Position numbers and translations under genes: made by a program | Notes under the pieces: generated by a model | Database searches by the model: none | What the model was told of the DNA's origin: nothing | The model's input: the letters and a program-made list of their open reading frames with translations, nothing else | In this document: one piece after another, positions 31,015 to 43,350 of the stretch | Position numbering within the stretch: position 1 is the stretch's first letter | Layout: each line of letters begins with the position of its first letter | NCBI GenBank assembly: GCA_013166775.1 | Contig: JABLTJ010000010.1 | Coordinates: 32,746 to 96,745 of the forward strand | Direction: 5' to 3' | Origin: Promethearchaeati archaeon | GTDB taxonomy: Archaea; Asgardarchaeota; Heimdallarchaeia; Heimdallarchaeales; Heimdallarchaeaceae | Length of the DNA: 64,000 bases

Positions 31015-31578
31015 ATGTCCATATTTGGAGTTGTAAAGATTGTACTTTTAGGTGATTACGCAACAGGAAAGACAACCCTAAAAAGAAATTTCATGGGTCT
31101 TCATTTAGATGAAGCTTATATGAGTACCCTAGGTGTAGATTTAGCATCTCACAAACACGAAGACGAAGATATGGAAATAACCTTTCAGATTTGGGATCTT
31201 GGAGGACAACCAGAATTTAAAGAACTGAGAAGTAAGCAATATGCAGGAGCAGAGGGGGGACTACTGGTTTTTGACAAAAGTCGTCCTGAAACTTATTCTA
31301 ATTTAGAGAATTGGTTAGAGGAATTGAATGCCTCTCTAAAAGAAAGAGTTCCTGTGCTAATCCTTGGAAATAAAAACGATTTAATAGATGGAGAAAACAA
31401 TTTGAGGATCGATACTGAAGCACAGCGATATCTCAATGAGACTAAAGATCTGTATCCTAATATTGAATTAAGAGAATACTATTCAACTTGTGCTTTGACA
31501 GGTATGAATGTTTACAAAGCTTTTCTAAATCTTGGGCGAATTATCATCAGAAGTAAAAGTGATGAGCTGAAAATATAA
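31015..31578 (+). CDS. Rab-like Ras-superfamily small GTPase
   Basis: G1 GDYATGKT, G2 TLGVD, G3 WDLGGQ, G4 NKND, G5 TCAL; no C-terminal prenylation Cys. Confidence 0.92.
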   Translation: MSIFGVVKIVLLGDYATGKTTLKRNFMGLHLDEAYMSTLGVDLASHKHEDEDMEITFQIWDLGGQPEFKELRSKQYAGAEGGLLVFDKSRPETYSNLENWLEELNASLKERVPVLILGNKNDLIDGENNLRIDTEAQRYLNETKDLYPNIELREYYSTCALTGMNVYKAFLNLGRIIIRSKSDELKI

Positions 31579-35191: not shown

Positions 35192-35761
35192 TTATACAAT
35201 TCCCAAATACTTTCGAGCTTTTTTATGTTCTTTTTCTAGTTCTTCCGCTATATTAGAGAACAATTGAATCGCTTTATTTGTCAACTCCTGAAATTGGTTG
35301 AAAGCATCTTCAAATGACTTTAAGGAATTCATTAAAAGTTCTTCTTCGGTGTCTCCTTTTTCAATGAAAGTCATTGTTTTACTTAAGTTTCGAAGTATAG
35401 TTTGAAGAAATCCTATTTCCTCTTCTTCATCCTTGCATAACTGCATCATTTTTTTAGGTCCTTTAAGTGGAAAATCCAAACCATCCATCTCAATCATTAA
35501 ACCATAATTTTCTGCATTGATTTTCTCTAATTCTGAGAGTATTTTACCTAGATTAGTAAGATCAGACATGATTTCAGTCTTTTTTGAACTAACGCTAGTT
35601 CTGTTTTTCATTATGTTCTTAATATCTTCAATTATTTTTGGACATACATCTACAACACTTATGACGATATCACTCCATCTCTGAATAATATCTTCTAAGT
35701 TGTTTTTAAAAGAACCCGTTGCATATGCTAGGGAATCTGTTCTTCTATATTTTTCACTCAT
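35192..35761 (-). CDS. all-helical hypothetical protein
   Basis: 189-aa ORF with GGTGA SD-like site upstream. Confidence 0.65.
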   Translation of the reverse strand: MSEKYRRTDSLAYATGSFKNNLEDIIQRWSDIVISVVDVCPKIIEDIKNIMKNRTSVSSKKTEIMSDLTNLGKILSELEKINAENYGLMIEMDGLDFPLKGPKKMMQLCKDEEEEIGFLQTILRNLSKTMTFIEKGDTEEELLMNSLKSFEDAFNQFQELTNKAIQLFSNIAEELEKEHKKARKYLGIV

Positions 35762-35977: not shown

Positions 35978-36982
35978 ATGCCCTTCACATTGAATAATAA
36001 TGATGTAAAAGGAAAAGTTCTGGATGTACAATTATACATAGCTCAATGCGCTGTTTTGGCTCATAATATTTTATACTCTACTGAACTAAAACCAGGAGGA
36101 GCATCTTTTCTTCATGAATTTGATGATACAAAATCAGAACACTTTCTTGCTGGGGCAAGTAGTTTATTTTCTCCAATTTTCAGTTTAGCTAAAAGAGGTA
36201 TATTAGTAGCTGGTAATCATCTCTGGTTCGAAGATGCAGAACTAGGATTTATAATAGAAAATGGACTTAAAAAAGCAAAAACATGGTACAGATCTTCAGG
36301 AAACACAATTTTTGGAACTTTACTAATGTTCGCTCCAATAACTCTAGGCATAGCTCACTGTTTTGCAACTGAAGGAATGAAAACAAATACACAGATAAAT
36401 TTAGACAACGTTGTGAGTATAACAGAACAATTTCTTAAAAATTCAACTTCTGAGGATTGTATTTATCTCACCAAAGCTTTGAATAATTGTGTTTCTAACA
36501 GAATACTTCAATCTGATAAACAAGAAGATAATTTTAACTCATTCATGGAAATTCACAGAAATGAAAGAACAAATCTGTTTGAATACACAAAATTCTATGA
36601 AGGAAGAGATCTAGTCTTCCATGAGTTATCACACAGATATCAAATCTCGTTGAAATGTGGATTTTCAACATTCAAAAGAGTTTATGATGAGAATAGCAAT
36701 TTTAGAAATGCTACAACTCAAACATATATTACTTTGCTTTCAGAGAAGAAAGATACACACATTGCTAAGAGATTTGGTAATGAAATAGCAACTGAAGTAA
36801 ATAAAAAAACAAAAGAAACTATTAAAGCTGGTGGGATATTTACTCAGGAAGGAAAAGAATCAATCAAAGCGTTAGATACTTATCTTCGAACATCTCAAAA
36901 GAGAGAAATAAATCCTGGCTCTATTTCTGATATAACAGCAACTACGATTTTTCTAGCACTGCTTCAGGGATTTCGTCCTTAA
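35978..36982 (+). CDS. citG: triphosphoribosyl-dephospho-CoA synthase (CitG) family
   Basis: KPG, GNTIFG.LLM..P, DTHIAKRFG, INPGSISD. Confidence 0.82.
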   Translation: MPFTLNNNDVKGKVLDVQLYIAQCAVLAHNILYSTELKPGGASFLHEFDDTKSEHFLAGASSLFSPIFSLAKRGILVAGNHLWFEDAELGFIIENGLKKAKTWYRSSGNTIFGTLLMFAPITLGIAHCFATEGMKTNTQINLDNVVSITEQFLKNSTSEDCIYLTKALNNCVSNRILQSDKQEDNFNSFMEIHRNERTNLFEYTKFYEGRDLVFHELSHRYQISLKCGFSTFKRVYDENSNFRNATTQTYITLLSEKKDTHIAKRFGNEIATEVNKKTKETIKAGGIFTQEGKESIKALDTYLRTSQKREINPGSISDITATTIFLALLQGFRP

Positions 36983-38009
36983 CTACTATATCTTTCTCAA
37001 ACACCCTTTTTGTCAATTCTAACAAATCTGAAGTTGAGATATGGTGATCATAGTCAAGAAATAGAATTCGATTTACTAATTTAATGACGACTGTAGCTTT
37101 TTCTTGTGTTGTAAATATCTGAACATGAACTGGAGCAGTGAATAGATACTCAAGTCCCTTTTCAGCAGCTTGAAAGAGATCACTCAATATTTTATGAAAT
37201 CCGCTTATATTCTCGTTAGTCAGAGGGGAAACCAATGAACGGTTATAAATCTCTATTTTATCTGGATTAAATGCTTCAGTAAACATATCTAGGATTTGTT
37301 TATGAGATTTAGTTTTGAATTGTCTGAATCGTTTTACTTCAAATTCTTTGATTTTTGATTCCATTACAATGATAACAAAAGGAAATATAATTGTCTGAAT
37401 TAAATTTCCTTGATGAGTAATATGATGACCCATACCCTTCTCACAATTATTCATGGATGAAACTACTTTTCTCAGACTCTTTCCGAGCACTTGGAAAATT
37501 GTAAAACTATCAATGTTATAATTTGGCGCATTTGCCATAACAACCAAGGGTTCATTTTCATTTGAAAACATACACCACGCTTGCATTTTTCCTCCTTCAG
37601 GATCTTCAAAAAGCACATCTGCTATCTCGACTCCACACTGCAAGAGAATATTTCTGCATTCTTCTTGAAACCCATGAAAAACACTTACATTCCCTGAAAA
37701 TCCTTCAAAATGTTCTTTGTAATTACGATAGAAATTCTCCGAAATGCAATCACTTACATAATCCGCATATTCATTGGGCATCTCATCAGATATCTGAAAA
37801 ATAAAAATCAGAGAATCCTTTGATTTAAGAAGATATTGACTCTCTTCTAACAGAACACGAGATAGTTTTTCCTTTTCTATTTCTTCAACAAATCTCAGAA
37901 TTGCTGTGATCAAACCTGAAACTAAAACCTCATCTCCCCTAGAATATTCTTCATAATCAAAAATAGGAACCCCATGTTCAGTAATGATTAATATTCTTTT
38001 TATGAGCAA
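36942..38009 (-). CDS. multi (likely triple) longin/roadblock-domain protein
   Basis: RILIITEHGVPIF...DEVLVSGLITAILRFVEE is a longin signature; two further beta-beta-alpha-beta-beta-beta units follow. Confidence 0.68.
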   Translation of the reverse strand: MLIKRILIITEHGVPIFDYEEYSRGDEVLVSGLITAILRFVEEIEKEKLSRVLLEESQYLLKSKDSLIFIFQISDEMPNEYADYVSDCISENFYRNYKEHFEGFSGNVSVFHGFQEECRNILLQCGVEIADVLFEDPEGGKMQAWCMFSNENEPLVVMANAPNYNIDSFTIFQVLGKSLRKVVSSMNNCEKGMGHHITHQGNLIQTIIFPFVIIVMESKIKEFEVKRFRQFKTKSHKQILDMFTEAFNPDKIEIYNRSLVSPLTNENISGFHKILSDLFQAAEKGLEYLFTAPVHVQIFTTQEKATVVIKLVNRILFLDYDHHISTSDLLELTKRVFEKDIVVKDEIPEAVLEKS

Positions 38010-38012
38010 GTT

Positions 38013-38891
38013 TCAACCACCTAATTTTATTGATTGCAAGGATGTTCCTATTTCTGATAAATCAGGAAGTTTTCCTTCAATTTTTTGTTTAGATATAATA
38101 TTATGTATCTTCTTCAATAAATATTCGATTGTTGTAAATTTGAAATCTCCCTGATAGAATATAAAATTGTAATGATATAAGGATAATAGATAACTATCCA
38201 AACAAGCGTGTTGAATTAATGCATAGAAGTTGGTATCCCCTATTCTAATCTTTTCCTCCTTTGTTGATAGCAGATAATCCATTCTCTTTGAGGACAAACG
38301 AATTAATTTAGTGAGATAAGTAGAATTTTGCTTGTTAAATATCTCTGGAGAGCTAAATATCACAAATCTTCCACGTCTTTTGTACCCAGCAATAATAACA
38401 GGTTGGTTGTCCATCAGAGCTAATGGGATATAGTTTTTTATTCCTCTTTCCTTAAGTAAATCTTTTCTAGTTTCATACTCAATTACATGAGCTTGTGTGA
38501 TTTTTAACTCTGAACCTATCAAGCGTGTATCAACTGGTATCCTTGGTAATCCATAAACATAGTTTGATTGAAAGGAAATTCCGAGTTCCTTCCTAAATTC
38601 ATCAAAAAATCTACCTAAATCATCCCAAGGTGGTGAAGGTAAAGTAAGAACCAAACAACCTCCAATATCGATATATGAAGTAAGCTCAATGTACTGATCT
38701 TGAGTTATTTTTTTTCTTGGTAAACTGATAAATAAAATATGAGATTTTTCGAGAATATTTCTATCTAGTCCAGTACCAATCTTCTTTATAATGTTAAACT
38801 TGATTTCTGCTATTTCTATGTCCACAACACTCGTTATCTGTTTAGGTTGAATAGACTCATTGAGAGTGGTATCAATAGAGCAGAGTTTCAT
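38013..38891 (-). CDS. GIFT-domain (GldG/IFT52-like) protein
   Basis: ILFISLPRKKITQDQYIELTSYIDIGGCLVL, LGISFQSNYV, PVIIAG..RGRFVIFSSPEIF..QNSTYL. Confidence 0.6.
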   Translation of the reverse strand: MKLCSIDTTLNESIQPKQITSVVDIEIAEIKFNIIKKIGTGLDRNILEKSHILFISLPRKKITQDQYIELTSYIDIGGCLVLTLPSPPWDDLGRFFDEFRKELGISFQSNYVYGLPRIPVDTRLIGSELKITQAHVIEYETRKDLLKERGIKNYIPLALMDNQPVIIAGYKRRGRFVIFSSPEIFNKQNSTYLTKLIRLSSKRMDYLLSTKEEKIRIGDTNFYALIQHACLDSYLLSLYHYNFIFYQGDFKFTTIEYLLKKIHNIISKQKIEGKLPDLSEIGTSLQSIKLGG

Positions 38892-38975
38892 CTATCTATG
38901 AATTGGTAGTGTTCATTTAAACCTATTGCGTTTTAGGAAGAAAAAAACGATGAAAGAAGAACCAGCTAGATAGCA

Positions 38976-40046
38976 TCATTCTTTCTTTTCTTGTTGTCTA
39001 ATCTTGAGGATTTTTCTTAAATCTCTTCTGAGTTTTCTAGCTGCTGCACTTTCTGGAGTATATCTGAGAGATGCTGCAACTTCTTTGTAAGCTTCTTGAT
39101 AATCTTCCTTAGCTTTCAGACTTATGGCTCTAAGTAGATGAGCTTTTGATATTAAATGAGGAACACTAACGGATTTTTCTTCGGTTTCAGCAAGAATTCT
39201 TTTAGTGTATTCAAGCACTTTATCATGCTTATTCTTTTGAACATAAAGTACTGCTAATTTTGACAGAATTGCAACATTTTCCTTATCTTCCTTAAGATAA
39301 TCTTCAAGTACCTTTATACTTGTATCTTTTAGATCTGATTCATTATAGTACTCAGCAGCTTTTACAACCATAACTGGATCATTCATAGTTCCAAAACGCT
39401 TGGTTCTATAATAGAAAAACAGAAAGATTCCCACTCCTCCAAGGAGAGAAAGAATCTCCAAGACTATGATTAAAACGTCTTTAACAATAAATATCTCAGC
39501 AAAGATGAAGTAATGTGAAGCAATTGCAACTACCGAAGTAATTCCCAACCATATCCAATACTTTGTTCCATATAGCAGTTCAAATTTATTTTTTTTGTAT
39601 ACTTCTTCGCTTTCACCTTCAATTACAGGAAAAATTTCTAGACTATCTGTAACAGTTATGTGTCCTGCAAATTCTAGTAATGAAAGAACAAATAATGCAA
39701 TAAAATTGAAAATCAACACTGTCCTAATCTCTTCTTCAGCTCTAATGTATCTACTCAAGAGTAGTATATCGAATAGAATTATGGAGATTAAGTTATAATT
39801 TCGTAAGGATCTAATATGAGCTAAATAGATCGATCTGGTTTGATGAACTTGTTTAGGTAGTGGTCTTCTTCTGAAACGGACAACAATCCATCCAACTAGG
39901 AATACGATAATGGACGGAAATGAAGCAAATCCTATTGGTGCACTTGTTCTTATGTCCGAAAAAGACAAGATGAAAATTAACAATCCAACTATAATCATGA
40001 CTAAATCTTCTTCCGACATAGCCATATCAATTTCATTTTTACTCAT
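38976..40046 (-). CDS. multi-TM protein with C-terminal TPR repeats
   Basis: About 6 hydrophobic helices, then TPR-like LSKLAVLY..., AHLLRAISL..., YQEAYKEVAASLRYTP. Confidence 0.72.
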   Translation of the reverse strand: MSKNEIDMAMSEEDLVMIIVGLLIFILSFSDIRTSAPIGFASFPSIIVFLVGWIVVRFRRRPLPKQVHQTRSIYLAHIRSLRNYNLISIILFDILLLSRYIRAEEEIRTVLIFNFIALFVLSLLEFAGHITVTDSLEIFPVIEGESEEVYKKNKFELLYGTKYWIWLGITSVVAIASHYFIFAEIFIVKDVLIIVLEILSLLGGVGIFLFFYYRTKRFGTMNDPVMVVKAAEYYNESDLKDTSIKVLEDYLKEDKENVAILSKLAVLYVQKNKHDKVLEYTKRILAETEEKSVSVPHLISKAHLLRAISLKAKEDYQEAYKEVAASLRYTPESAAARKLRRDLRKILKIRQQEKKE

Positions 40047-40116: not shown

Positions 40117-42726
40117 CTATTCATTCTTGATTTCTGGTCTTTCTACAAGTTTGGTACAATCTTTTGCAAATCCTTGTAAATCTTCTTCTTCAAGTACATT
40201 GGCTAGTCTCTGAACAGCTTCAAGATGGTGAACAAGTGAATCTAACCAACTGTAGATATCTCCAGCATAAAGCTGAATGTTATATAATTTTCTAGTTTCT
40301 GATGCAATACGAGTAGGTGAATAACCTTGCTTTCGCAATTCTATGATAATCTTTGAGAAATTTATTTCTCCACACCCGCAGAATGGTTTGTCAGCACATT
40401 TGCAATCCAAGAAAGTTTGTGTCCACTTAGTGAATGTCTCAATTATTAAATCAGTAGGTTTTCTTCTTCCCCAACCATTTCCTGAATAAAGATCTAGAAT
40501 AGCACCTGAAAATATGTTAGTAGAAACTGTTGATTTTATTACTTTTTCTATTTCTTTATGGATTTTTGGAGTCAGGTGTGCTCCTCTAAAAGTCTGAATC
40601 TTTATTGCTAGTTCAAATGCAAAATCATCTGAGAAACCCTTGTTTTTCTGTCTTCTAATCTCTTGTACTAATCTCAAAGCATATGATGGAGCTAAGAATG
40701 ATAATGATACAGCTTTTCCTAATTTTGTTGGATAGATTATCTTGTTCTCTGTATAGATCATTTCCATTTTCTTTAGTGCATTCATATTATTTCGTAATGG
40801 ATTCGATCTTCCTAAGATATTCGCAAATATCATTTTATCATCAGAGATACTTACTTCTTTGAAAGCAACAACAGTTGCTAACACTTCTTCTTCTTCTTGT
40901 ATTGTCTCGAGAAAAGGGTCTACATCTTCAATAGGTTTAGTTAGGAGTTCAAAAGCTATCTGTTCCTCAGTCTCTTTTTGTCCTGCATAGATTTTCCTTC
41001 CTGGTTCAACAAGCAAAAACACTTTTCCTTTATCGTGAAAACCTAATCGTCCAGCTCTTCCTAACATTTGGTGAAATTCTGCAACTGATAACCATTCAAT
41101 TCCCATCGCTAAGTTCTCAAAGATTACTGTGGATGCTGGAAAATCCACTCCCGCACCAAGAGCTATAGTCGTCACAACAGTTGAGAATTTTCCTTTTTCA
41201 AAACCTCTTTCAACCATCTTTCGTCTCATAAAAGTTAATCCTGCGTGGTAATGGTTTGCTTTTACTCCTTTATTCCTCAGTTTTCTTGCAACGCTTTCAC
41301 AATTTCTTCTAGAATTAGTAAAGACAAGTGATTGACCCTGATAACCTGTACTCGATTTTATTTTTTCTTCATTCTTGCATAGCTTAAACAGGTACTCAAA
41401 TCTATCACCCTCATTATCTGTTATGATAGCGTGTCTTTCCAAAGGAATGGGACGATCTAGATATTCTATATAATCAGCAGATAAATCTTCAGCAAGTCCT
41501 TTTGTGTTACCGATAGTTGCTGACAGGTAGATGAATTGTGCTCTTGGGTAGAGAGCTTTCAATCTAGCAATTAATCCATTTAATCTGAATCCTCTCTCTT
41601 TTGCGACCAGCATTTGGATTTCATCTATTACAATTACTCCAACATTTCCGATTGCGTCACTTCTATTATCTCTTAATAAGAAATCAAATGCTTCATATGT
41701 CGCAACAATTATATCAGATTTCGTAAAATCATCGTCAATAATTGGAGAAAACTCACCATCAACTTTGATTCGACTCATTCCTACACGAATAGCGGTTTTG
41801 AGTCCGATTTTTTGATATCTTCTTTTGAACTGTTCATACTTTTGATTTGTAAGGGCTACCAAAGGAGATAAGTAAATAAATTTCTTCTTCTGCAAAGCTT
41901 TTGGGATACCTGCTAATTCTGCAACCAAGGTCTTTCCAGATGTGGTTCCAGCAACTATGAGCAAATCTTTATTGTCAAGTAATCCTCCCTCAATTGATTT
42001 TTCTTGAATAGGTAATAGATTTTTGATACCCTCTGAGATTAGAATTTCTTTTAACCTCGATGGAAGATTTTTGACATCTTTAACCTTGGTAACTTTATCT
42101 GGTTTCTTAGCAGGTATTATATCGAAGATTGTCGAATCAGGATTCCTTATCGGATCTTGTTCTGTACCCAAAGAAATATTTTCTAAAACAAAATCAAGTT
42201 CTCCCTCTCTTTCAGCTTGTTGCTGAAAGAACTTTGTAAGACCTCCTGAAACAACAAGATTACTTCTTTGAAGTTCTTGAACAAGCTCTGATTTGCTACA
42301 GTAATCACAAATTCTATGACTTTTAAATTTGATTGAATCTTCTTCAAGTGTAGTCCATTTGGATCTCCTAGATAAACAGTACCAACAAGTTTGTACAATT
42401 CTCGGTTTTGAAATTTTGAACGTTTTACAGTATTCTAAAAATGATTTATTATCCCAAGGAAGATCAGTATCTGGAATCAATAAATATTCTGCTTCTCTAA
42501 GCTGTTCAGTAGCAGTTCGTGGTCGAACATAAATATTTGAGCTCTTACCAATTTTAAGATACTTGTAAACTCTAAGATAGTCTTTCTCGTAGACAAACTG
42601 CAAACTTGTGTTCATAATTGAAATTCTATCCTTCTTGCCTTTAAGAAGAAAATAAGCTATATTAGTAGATAGCTTTTCTTTGTTCCATTTGTAGAGAATT
42701 GCAACATAAGGCTTAGGAAGTTTCAT
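40117..42726 (-). CDS. archaeal SF2 Ski2-like DEAD/DEAH helicase (COG1202/DUF5814 type)
   Basis: TTSGKT, PLVAL, DEIQ, SAT, YHAGL, QMLGRAGR; C-terminal CKC..PFCGC. Confidence 0.92.
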   Translation of the reverse strand: MKLPKPYVAILYKWNKEKLSTNIAYFLLKGKKDRISIMNTSLQFVYEKDYLRVYKYLKIGKSSNIYVRPRTATEQLREAEYLLIPDTDLPWDNKSFLEYCKTFKISKPRIVQTCWYCLSRRSKWTTLEEDSIKFKSHRICDYCSKSELVQELQRSNLVVSGGLTKFFQQQAEREGELDFVLENISLGTEQDPIRNPDSTIFDIIPAKKPDKVTKVKDVKNLPSRLKEILISEGIKNLLPIQEKSIEGGLLDNKDLLIVAGTTSGKTLVAELAGIPKALQKKKFIYLSPLVALTNQKYEQFKRRYQKIGLKTAIRVGMSRIKVDGEFSPIIDDDFTKSDIIVATYEAFDFLLRDNRSDAIGNVGVIVIDEIQMLVAKERGFRLNGLIARLKALYPRAQFIYLSATIGNTKGLAEDLSADYIEYLDRPIPLERHAIITDNEGDRFEYLFKLCKNEEKIKSSTGYQGQSLVFTNSRRNCESVARKLRNKGVKANHYHAGLTFMRRKMVERGFEKGKFSTVVTTIALGAGVDFPASTVIFENLAMGIEWLSVAEFHQMLGRAGRLGFHDKGKVFLLVEPGRKIYAGQKETEEQIAFELLTKPIEDVDPFLETIQEEEEVLATVVAFKEVSISDDKMIFANILGRSNPLRNNMNALKKMEMIYTENKIIYPTKLGKAVSLSFLAPSYALRLVQEIRRQKNKGFSDDFAFELAIKIQTFRGAHLTPKIHKEIEKVIKSTVSTNIFSGAILDLYSGNGWGRRKPTDLIIETFTKWTQTFLDCKCADKPFCGCGEINFSKIIIELRKQGYSPTRIASETRKLYNIQLYAGDIYSWLDSLVHHLEAVQRLANVLEEEDLQGFAKDCTKLVERPEIKNE

Positions 42727-42753: not shown

Positions 42754-43350
42754 TTATTGCTTTTTTTCCTCTTTATCTAAAGAAGTAGCTGTTATATTTT
42801 GGCCACAAGCTGTACAGAATTTTGCTTTAATGGAATTGGATTTATTACATTTCGGACACTCTTTTTGCAAAGGATTTCCACAATGCTTGCAGAATTTTCT
42901 CAGAGGAGCTTCTTTCTCACAATTTGGACAGATTAATGTTTTTTCTTTTTGTTTAGCTTTTGTTTTTACTTTTGGTTGTTCTTTTGCCTCTTTTGAAATT
43001 TCTGCTAATGCTTTAGGTGAAGGGGTTCCCAACCATGATGGGACCTGGGGTTGATAACCAGATTGTGTAGAAGGAGTTTTCGAGACCGGAGCTGCTATTT
43101 GAGGTTTTGAAGAAGAAGGAGTTGTTAGAGTTGAAACTGATGACGAAATAGTGATTTCTTCTTTTGCTTCAGGGTCAACTTTATAGATATAATCTAGAAC
43201 TTTAGTTTTTTCAGGAACAGCAACTTTGTTTTTTTGTTGTTTCATCAGTGCCAATGCTAGATAGTCTTTAGCATTATTTTGATCTGTTCCACAGTGGTGA
43301 CAAATCTTTTCCTCCTCTGAAATAGGTTCCCAACAAGCTAAACATTTCAT
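42754..43350 (-). CDS. zinc-ribbon / double-zinc-ribbon protein with P/S/T-rich linker
   Basis: CLAC..CHHC; CPNC..CKHC..CPKC..CTAC. Confidence 0.8.
   Translation of the reverse strand: MKCLACWEPISEEEKICHHCGTDQNNAKDYLALALMKQQKNKVAVPEKTKVLDYIYKVDPEAKEEITISSSVSTLTTPSSSKPQIAAPVSKTPSTQSGYQPQVPSWLGTPSPKALAEISKEAKEQPKVKTKAKQKEKTLICPNCEKEAPLRKFCKHCGNPLQKECPKCNKSNSIKAKFCTACGQNITATSLDKEEKKQ

Follow-up and report, generated by a model that had tools for sequence, protein, structure and literature searches.

In a 64,000-nucleotide (nt) stretch of Heimdallarchaeaceae DNA (Promethearchaeati archaeon, assembly GCA_013166775.1, contig JABLTJ010000010.1, positions 32,746 to 96,745; the whole stretch is called the window here), three genes follow each other head to tail on the minus strand. 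They encode a transmembrane protein with a tetratricopeptide-repeat tail (TM-TPR; P0001, 356 amino acids (aa), 38976-40046), a GIFT-fold protein (P0002, 292 aa, 38013-38891) and a tri-longin-domain protein (TLD; P0003, 355 aa, 36942-38009, TTG start). P0003 represents, in Heimdallarchaeaceae, a patchily distributed Asgard TLD family of single-copy orthologs that includes Candidatus (Ca.) Lokiarchaeum ossiferum, and its nearest known relatives are the eukaryotic TLD subunits of Rab guanine-nucleotide exchange factors (GEFs), i.e., of Mon1-Ccz1, Fuzzy-Inturned and HPS1-HPS4. We propose that a P0003 homodimer acts as a GEF-like longin platform for a small GTPase and is held at the membrane by lineage-specific partners, a functional assignment to which we give an even chance. 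A sequence-only reading of this DNA had named the three domain types and had likened the gene string to the intraflagellar-transport (IFT) complex IFT-B and to CPLANE. The domain calls have proven right by hydropathy, Pfam and AlphaFold2 (AF2) models, as has the arrangement of three co-oriented genes, the last two only 3 nt apart, by open-reading-frame (ORF) coordinates and by reading of the sequence; the likeness to the ciliary complexes is not supported.

Three Longin/Roadblock Units in One Chain

The AF2 model of P0003, for which 30 family sequences have served as input, reaches a predicted local-distance score (pLDDT) of 84.1 and a predicted TM-score (pTM) of 0.82, and consists of three alpha/beta units. 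The first, LD1 (aa 1-135, 37605-38009, minus strand), is a canonical longin domain (residues 3-102, bb-a-bbb-a) that continues into helices up to residue 135. In the secondary structure assigned by DSSP to the model, LD2 (aa 138-222, 37344-37598, minus strand) is of longin/roadblock type (residues 142-219, bb-a-bbb) and LD3 (aa 232-340, 36990-37316, minus strand) of roadblock type (residues 236-338, a-b-a-bbb-a). In a Foldseek search against the PDB, ranks 1-21 among the matches listed have all been occupied by chains of Mon1-Ccz1, BLOC-3 or Fuzzy-Inturned/CPLANE, with E-values of 7e-10 to 1e-5 and alignments of 393-484 columns that are collinear over the full length; single longins and unrelated multi-domain proteins enter the list from about 1e-4, the single longins from 1.9e-4. 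A VIA search with the same model has given spans covering residues 1-340 solely with chains of the Mon1-Ccz1 complex, and its alignments of the whole model are dominated by LD1. Both Foldseek and VIA align Mon1/Ccz1 chains collinearly across the LD2 region, and a bacterial Robl_LC7 cluster of the ESM Atlas covers residues 119-346. According to the model, three consecutive longin/roadblock units are present in the P0003 chain and all three are real, which sets aside the concern of the sequence-only reading that a single longin might be genuine. The units do not resemble each other in sequence, as an internal-repeat search of LD1, LD2 and LD3 by hhalign has found no similarity.

A Single-Copy TLD Family in Asgard Archaea

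P0003 itself matches the Pfam model Fuz_longin_1 (PF19036) with 16.1 bits, which is below the cut-off of 26.1, and a weak match to the same model is found in 18 of the 30 members of the Heimdallarchaeaceae TLD family. Among the wider Asgard homologs the model is matched by 15 of 19 (best E 2e-10), and a "hypothetical protein" of Ca. Lokiarchaeum ossiferum, whose genome is a 6-Mb single contig, lies above the curated cut-off with 35 bits. The profile of the Heimdallarchaeaceae family and that of the 19 wider homologs have been aligned by hhalign over 317 columns (99.5%, E 9e-23). With the family's own profile, full-length orthologs have been detected in all 30 genomes of the family (25 of 30 at the cross-family cut-off), and homologs of 354-404 aa occur in other Asgard families. 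The sister families f2 and f3 hold full-length TLD genes in 1 of 1 and 3 of 3 genomes, and the Loki-type families f17, f18, f19, f20 and f21 in 1 of 2, 1 of 1, 3 of 14, 53 of 134 and 2 of 4 genomes, respectively; none has been found in the remainder of the own class and in most other families. Automatic annotation already places PF19036 tags on some Asgard proteins. Literature searches have returned no article that joins tri-longin with Asgard or archaea, and articles naming Mon1 or Ccz1 plus Asgard have done so in passing mention only.

Exactly one full-length TLD gene per genome has been counted in each of the five genomes searched. In the window's genome P0003 is the top match of the TLD profile (E 5.8e-28) and the runner-up is a short longin (5e-12); the search for a second paralog in this genome has given just single-longin matches within larger ORFs, e.g., C76:75422-76744 (440 aa). 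A heterodimer partner, i.e., a paralogous TLD protein of the Ccz1, Inturned or HPS4 type, has not been found in the five genomes. Provided that P0003 dimerises as its eukaryotic relatives do, the single copy would therefore make it a homodimer.

Two Different Membrane-Protein Neighbours

The TGA stop codon of the GIFT gene (38015-38013) is followed by a spacer of only 3 nt (AAC, 38010-38012, minus strand) and by the TTG start of the TLD gene at 38009, and a Shine-Dalgarno-like (SD-like) GGTGGT lies close 5' of this start. The short spacer together with this motif is consistent with co-transcription and coupled translation of the two genes. The gap between the TM-TPR and the GIFT gene amounts to 84 nt. 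On the other side, the TLD gene converges with a CitG gene (35978-36982, plus strand) downstream of the trio, and the 3' ends of the two overlap by 41 nt (36942-36982), so that the TLD gene is the final gene of its own transcription unit.

Within Heimdallarchaeaceae the trio is contiguous in five of five genera, including genus g5, in which the TPR gene is inverted yet adjacent. The GIFT and TM-TPR genes are each found in 29 of the 30 genomes of the family, and the other Asgard families searched have neither, so that their distributions are identical; the one family genome without them is a 1.2-Mb assembly in which a contig end cuts the TLD gene. At seven loci outside the family, neither a GIFT nor a TM-TPR gene has been observed beside the TLD ortholog. 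Conservation of gene order, which the sequence-only reading had named as a check on its proposal, thus holds across the five genera of the family and ends beyond it. Considering the 3-nt gap between the GIFT and TLD genes and the contiguity in five genera despite the TPR inversion, a membrane-anchored assembly of the three proteins is a reasonable inference.

In Loki-type lineages, the TLD gene has a different neighbour. A conserved polytopic membrane protein of ~350 aa adjoins it in 28 of the 30 loci of that membrane protein (the two misses are contig ends), in 23 of the 28 on the same strand and with the TLD gene first; such pairs are represented by L016:7577-8653 (plus strand) beside L016:6298-7419 (minus strand) and by L022-L051. 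The membrane protein and the TLD protein share a common phyletic pattern. The former is 56-64% identical across families, Ca. Lokiarchaeum ossiferum included, has no Pfam match and shows no similarity to P0001 (hhalign 1.6%), and a homolog is absent from the window's genome. Its Cys-bearing C-terminal domain has an Atlas shape like V4R, ATC_hydrolase and RdxA_C (TM-scores of 0.62-0.75 by target). The occurrence of two unrelated membrane proteins beside one TLD family suggests that a dedicated membrane partner belongs to how the TLD protein works. For the eukaryotic TLD GEFs, accessory subunits are required for membrane recruitment (PMC12383261).

As a separate observation, the combination of a longin and a V4R-like domain in the Loki-type pair echoes the building blocks of TRAPP; the TRAPP subunit Bet3 has been proposed to descend from V4R (PMC2253512).

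Proposed Mechanism and Comparison With Eukaryotic TLD Proteins

P0003 would most likely form a homodimer, and its paired first longin domains may provide a platform that binds one of the ~30 Ras-superfamily GTPases of the cell and controls the nucleotide state of this GTPase in a GEF-like manner. In Heimdallarchaeaceae, where the GIFT gene is putatively coupled in translation to the TLD gene, membrane attachment would be accomplished by the cytosolic GIFT protein together with the presumably cytoplasmic TPR tail of P0001 with its 5-6 transmembrane helices. In Loki-type lineages, attachment would proceed via the unrelated polytopic membrane protein and its V4R-like domain, which is predicted to be cytoplasmic.

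Candidates for the client GTPase are numerous, as the window's genome contains 36 Ras-family matches and 32 small-GTPase-like ORFs. The substrates of TLD GEFs have a common Y-K/R motif in switch 1 (PMC12383261), and the pattern Y[KR]xT[IVLM]G has been found in 0 of these 32 ORFs. The sole Tyr-Lys in the switch 1 register (YKPTCG) occurs in one of the 32, located outside the window at C1:99672-100223 (minus strand); judged from this motif, the protein may be regarded as a lead to the TLD client and not as evidence for one. Also outside the window, C97:80330-82329 (minus strand) holds two adjacent ~330-aa genes with GTPase-like N-termini, one of them with a C-terminal longin/roadblock match, and this arrangement looks like a Rag-type GTPase pair.

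The archaeal protein shares with the eukaryotic TLD ("HerMon") subunits the three consecutive longin/roadblock units in a single chain of similar core size; LD1 is matched by Fuz_longin_1 above the cut-off in Loki-type orthologs and below it in P0003 itself. Moreover, it appears to be reliant on separate partners for membrane attachment, as reported for the eukaryotic side (PMC12383261). In contrast to the eukaryotic heterodimers of paralogs, the single archaeal copy allows at most a homodimer, and the likeness of LD2 and LD3 is structural only, with no match at the sequence level. The archaeal protein also has neither long insertions nor extra domains, and the partners proposed for it are integral to the membrane or of GIFT type, whereas a beta-propeller or BAR protein fulfils this role in eukaryotes. 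Among Asgard proteins, P0003 falls into the large expansion of GTPase platforms with longin, roadblock and TRAPPC3-like domains, of which single longin/roadblock units, Rag-type fusions and FLCN/NPRL2-like forms have been described (Tran et al., 2024, PMC10933270; Liu et al., preprint 10.1101/2020.10.19.343400). It differs from these in the three-longin chain, for which literature searches have found no description.

Weighing the Alternatives

Several observations weigh against a GEF-like platform with dedicated membrane partners. Superposed globally on TLD subunits, the P0003 model reaches low TM-scores of 0.20-0.26, which indicates an inter-domain geometry unlike theirs. The shape of LD1 alone is tied with generic longins in VIA, and the bacterial PatA_N and Robl_LC7 clusters of the Atlas superpose on 253 and 223 residues of P0003, respectively, vs 188 for the MON1 cluster. 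LD2 and LD3 have given no match to Fuz_longin_2/3 or to the Ccz1 and Intu longin models (E<=1 for P0003, E<=0.1 for the 49 family members), and neither of the two TLD profiles (own family, wider Asgard) has matched any PDB sequence at E<=10. A GTPase gene has been sought in the operon of the trio and none found; the nearest one (31015-31578 of the window, plus strand, Ras family with 112 bits) is 5.4 kb away, and its switch 1 (AYMSTLG) is without the YK motif. Finally, the synteny is not peculiar to the trio: the helicase, CitG, YjeF and DegV genes on its flanks have kept their order just as well in the most distant member of the family. Because the whole neighbourhood is syntenic across the family, gene order inside the family is weak evidence for linkage.

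This last point is taken up by the alternative that survives best, namely that common descent alone keeps the three genes together, and that TLD acts independently of the GIFT and TM-TPR proteins, the latter two having an unrelated, family-specific membrane function. Apart from the synteny of the flanking housekeeping genes, it would account for the absence of GIFT and TPR neighbours at the TLD genes of the sister families f2 and f3 and of Loki-type lineages, and for P0001 being the fastest-evolving protein of the trio (36-53% identity within the family). It fits poorly, however, with the 3-nt spacer and the SD-like GGTGGT between the GIFT and TLD genes, with a contiguity in five genera that outlasts the inversion of the TPR gene, with the identical, family-restricted distributions of GIFT and TM-TPR, and with the independent but analogous pairing of TLD with another membrane protein in Loki-type lineages. 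We consider it unlikely, although it deserves to be kept in mind.

That P0003 is a scaffold or sensor made of generic roadblock/longin units in tandem, similar to bacterial PATAN (PatA_N) or multi-roadblock proteins and without special kinship to eukaryotic TLD Rab-GEFs, and that the TLD match reflects the convergence of a common repeat, appears decidedly improbable to us. The tandem roadblock-like units of such bacterial proteins indeed superpose on most of the P0003 model in the Atlas: a Response_reg+PatA_N cluster reaches a TM-score by query of 0.52 with its aligned residues spread over 1-347, and a Robl_LC7 cluster 0.49, as compared to 0.40 for the MON1 cluster, and the tie of LD1 with many longins in VIA points in the same direction. 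Yet PatA_N and Robl_LC7 Pfam matches are absent from all 49 TLD family members, whereas Fuz_longin_1 is recurrent among them and exceeds its cut-off in Loki-type orthologs, and the first 21 Foldseek ranks among the matches listed are without exception TLD chains. The bacterial proteins differ furthermore in that they are fusions with receiver domains or others.

The GIFT and TM-TPR Proteins

The AF2 model of P0002 (pLDDT 88.8) comprises a GIFT domain, i.e., a GATase1-like, non-catalytic domain (aa 1-205, 38277-38891, minus strand), and a C-terminal domain that is modelled as a three-stranded meander with helices (aa 206-292, 38016-38276, minus strand, DSSP). According to Kyte-Doolittle hydropathy P0002 has no transmembrane segment and is thus cytosolic. 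Its match to the Pfam model IFT52_GIFT (16.6 bits) is below the threshold of 27.2, and this model is the preferred Pfam match of 27 of the 28 P0002 family members, with weak matches to ABC_transp_aux (PF09822) in 3 and to DUF4350 (PF14258) in 1 of the 28. As far as the profile matches can be taken, the recurrence of these weak IFT52_GIFT matches, and of the weak Fuz_longin_1 matches in 18 of 30 TLD family members, exceeds chance. Among solved structures, IFT52 comes nearest to the GIFT domain, with a lead of ~2 to 2.6 Z units and the highest identity (15-18%); it is the nearest among the few GIFT-type structures solved to date. In the Atlas, the shape neighbours of P0002 are mostly DUF4350 clusters, bacterial DUF4350 models reach TM-scores of 0.57-0.68, and the IFT52_GIFT model regularly co-matches DUF4350 in prokaryotic clusters. 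The C-terminal domain is covered there only by a bacterial DUF4350/DUF6421 cluster (TM-score by query 0.68, residues 1-288). Judged by its model, the shape of P0002 is equally near to bacterial DUF4350-type proteins and to IFT52. A place among generic GldG/DUF4350 proteins, which the sequence-only reading had named as an outcome against its proposal, is compatible with this structure.

At the level of sequence, the P0002 family is isolated and confined to Heimdallarchaeaceae. Its profile has obtained nine matches among 1.84 billion representative proteins, which are its own family, short fragments and one outside protein of 684 aa with ABC_transp_aux, IFT52_GIFT and DUF2194; no eukaryotic protein, no IFT52 and no GldG has been reached in this set, so that the sequences offer no basis for a phylogeny of the GIFT domain. 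Against all PDB sequences the profile has produced noise only, with IFT52 at E 1.3, and the models IFT52_central (PF23352) and Itf52_C (PF21178) have found no match in P0002 at E<=1 nor in the 28 family members. The modelled fold of P0002 is GIFT, and a specific affinity to IFT52 is not supported. P0002 shares with IFT52 (PDB 5fmr, 5fms) the N-terminal GIFT domain, but it is devoid of the central and C-terminal parts with which IFT52 binds IFT70, IFT88 and IFT46, and carries a different C-terminal domain of 87 aa instead. The prokaryotic GIFT proteins (DUF4350, ABC_transp_aux/GldG, ThuA-like) have the same fold, and the likeness to the DUF4350/DUF6421 cluster extends to the C-terminal domain. 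Unlike GldG-type GIFT proteins, P0002 has no transmembrane anchor or signal peptide, and in contrast to the GldA/GldF-type linkage there are no ABC-transporter genes near it; the genes around it encode TM-TPR, TLD, helicase and CitG.

For P0001, Kyte-Doolittle hydropathy predicts transmembrane segments at aa 14-32, 38-56, 110-128, 165-183 and 191-209 and a weak one at aa 84-99, i.e., a membrane region of 5-6 helices (aa 14-209, 39420-40007, minus strand). The loop at aa 57-83 is K/R-rich and RTKR follows the last transmembrane segment, and given six helices this positive-inside pattern favours a cytoplasmic C-terminal tail. The tail (aa 220-356, 38979-39389, minus strand) has ~135 residues with 2-3 weak Pfam TPR matches, namely TPR_19 (E 6.3e-5, aa 244-288) and TPR_2 (E 1e-3, aa 301-332), both slightly under their curated cut-offs. 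These roughly three repeats may be too few for a long TPR solenoid of the IFT88/IFT70 type, which wraps a partner peptide. Each P0001 homolog adjoins the GIFT gene of its genome.

It is very improbable that the trio is a forerunner of ciliary machinery, with GIFT-TPR corresponding to IFT52-IFT88/IFT70 and TLD to Fuzzy/CPLANE, since the closeness of IFT52 in solved structure and Pfam preference and the Fuzzy-Inturned/CPLANE chains among the best TLD matches are opposed by the missing IFT52 central and C-terminal regions, a profile that reaches no eukaryotic protein and only an ABC_transp_aux/DUF2194 protein outside its family, the equally close DUF4350 shapes that the IFT52_GIFT model often co-matches, a TPR tail of about three repeats, and the restriction of GIFT and TM-TPR to one family with TLD orthologs of other Asgard lineages lacking them. 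An ancestry of the IFT52-IFT88/70 pair in the GIFT-TPR pair would be a very faint prospect at best.

Flanking Genes

Immediately 5' of the trio lies the gene of a Hel308-like DEAD/DEAH helicase of 869 aa that is extended at the N-terminus and has a DUF5814 domain at the C-terminus (40117-42726, minus strand), and alongside it a double-zinc-ribbon protein (42754-43350) is syntenic in the family. On the other flank, a gene for a 189-aa protein (35192-35761, minus strand), which even the most distant member of the family has in this place, has a weak Pfam IFT20 match (aa 140-182, E 9.5e-4, 19.8 bits vs a cut-off of 27). We have rejected this match as an additional IFT link because it is short, of coiled-coil type and under the cut-off, and because the convergent CitG gene stands between this gene and the trio; it is probably a coiled-coil artefact.

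Implications for Asgard Archaea

The TLD Rab-GEFs Mon1-Ccz1, BLOC-3 and Fuzzy-Inturned act in endosome maturation, the formation of lysosome-related organelles and ciliogenesis. In the literature surveyed they have been described from eukaryotes only. They have been inferred to descend from a three-longin protein that formed homodimers (Sanchez-Pulido and Ponting, PMC7703760), and the single archaeal TLD copy fits such a homodimeric precursor. With a compact three-longin protein present as a single copy in Heimdallarchaeales and in Loki-type Asgard archaea, this proposal would become directly testable. That the archaeal TLD protein is a living representative of the homodimeric three-longin ancestor of all eukaryotic TLD Rab-GEFs, already an exchange factor for an Asgard Rab-like GTPase on membranes and equipped with interchangeable, lineage-specific membrane adaptors (GIFT plus TM-TPR in Heimdallarchaeaceae, the V4R-like membrane protein in Loki-type lineages), is a tentative idea that we regard as possible and rather doubtful.

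What the present analysis adds is the link to the Loki-type orthologs with their different membrane partner and the single-copy status of TLD, further the finding that the GIFT and TPR genes are restricted to one family and isolated in sequence, and the caveat that bacterial DUF4350-like and PATAN-like proteins pose for the models. The GIFT and TPR parts represent a family-specific twist and are not informative on how cilia arose. That the TLD gene has two different kinds of membrane protein beside it suggests that membrane recruitment by a dedicated partner may be older than eukaryotes, and it is on the origin of eukaryotic membrane-traffic switches that the trio bears.

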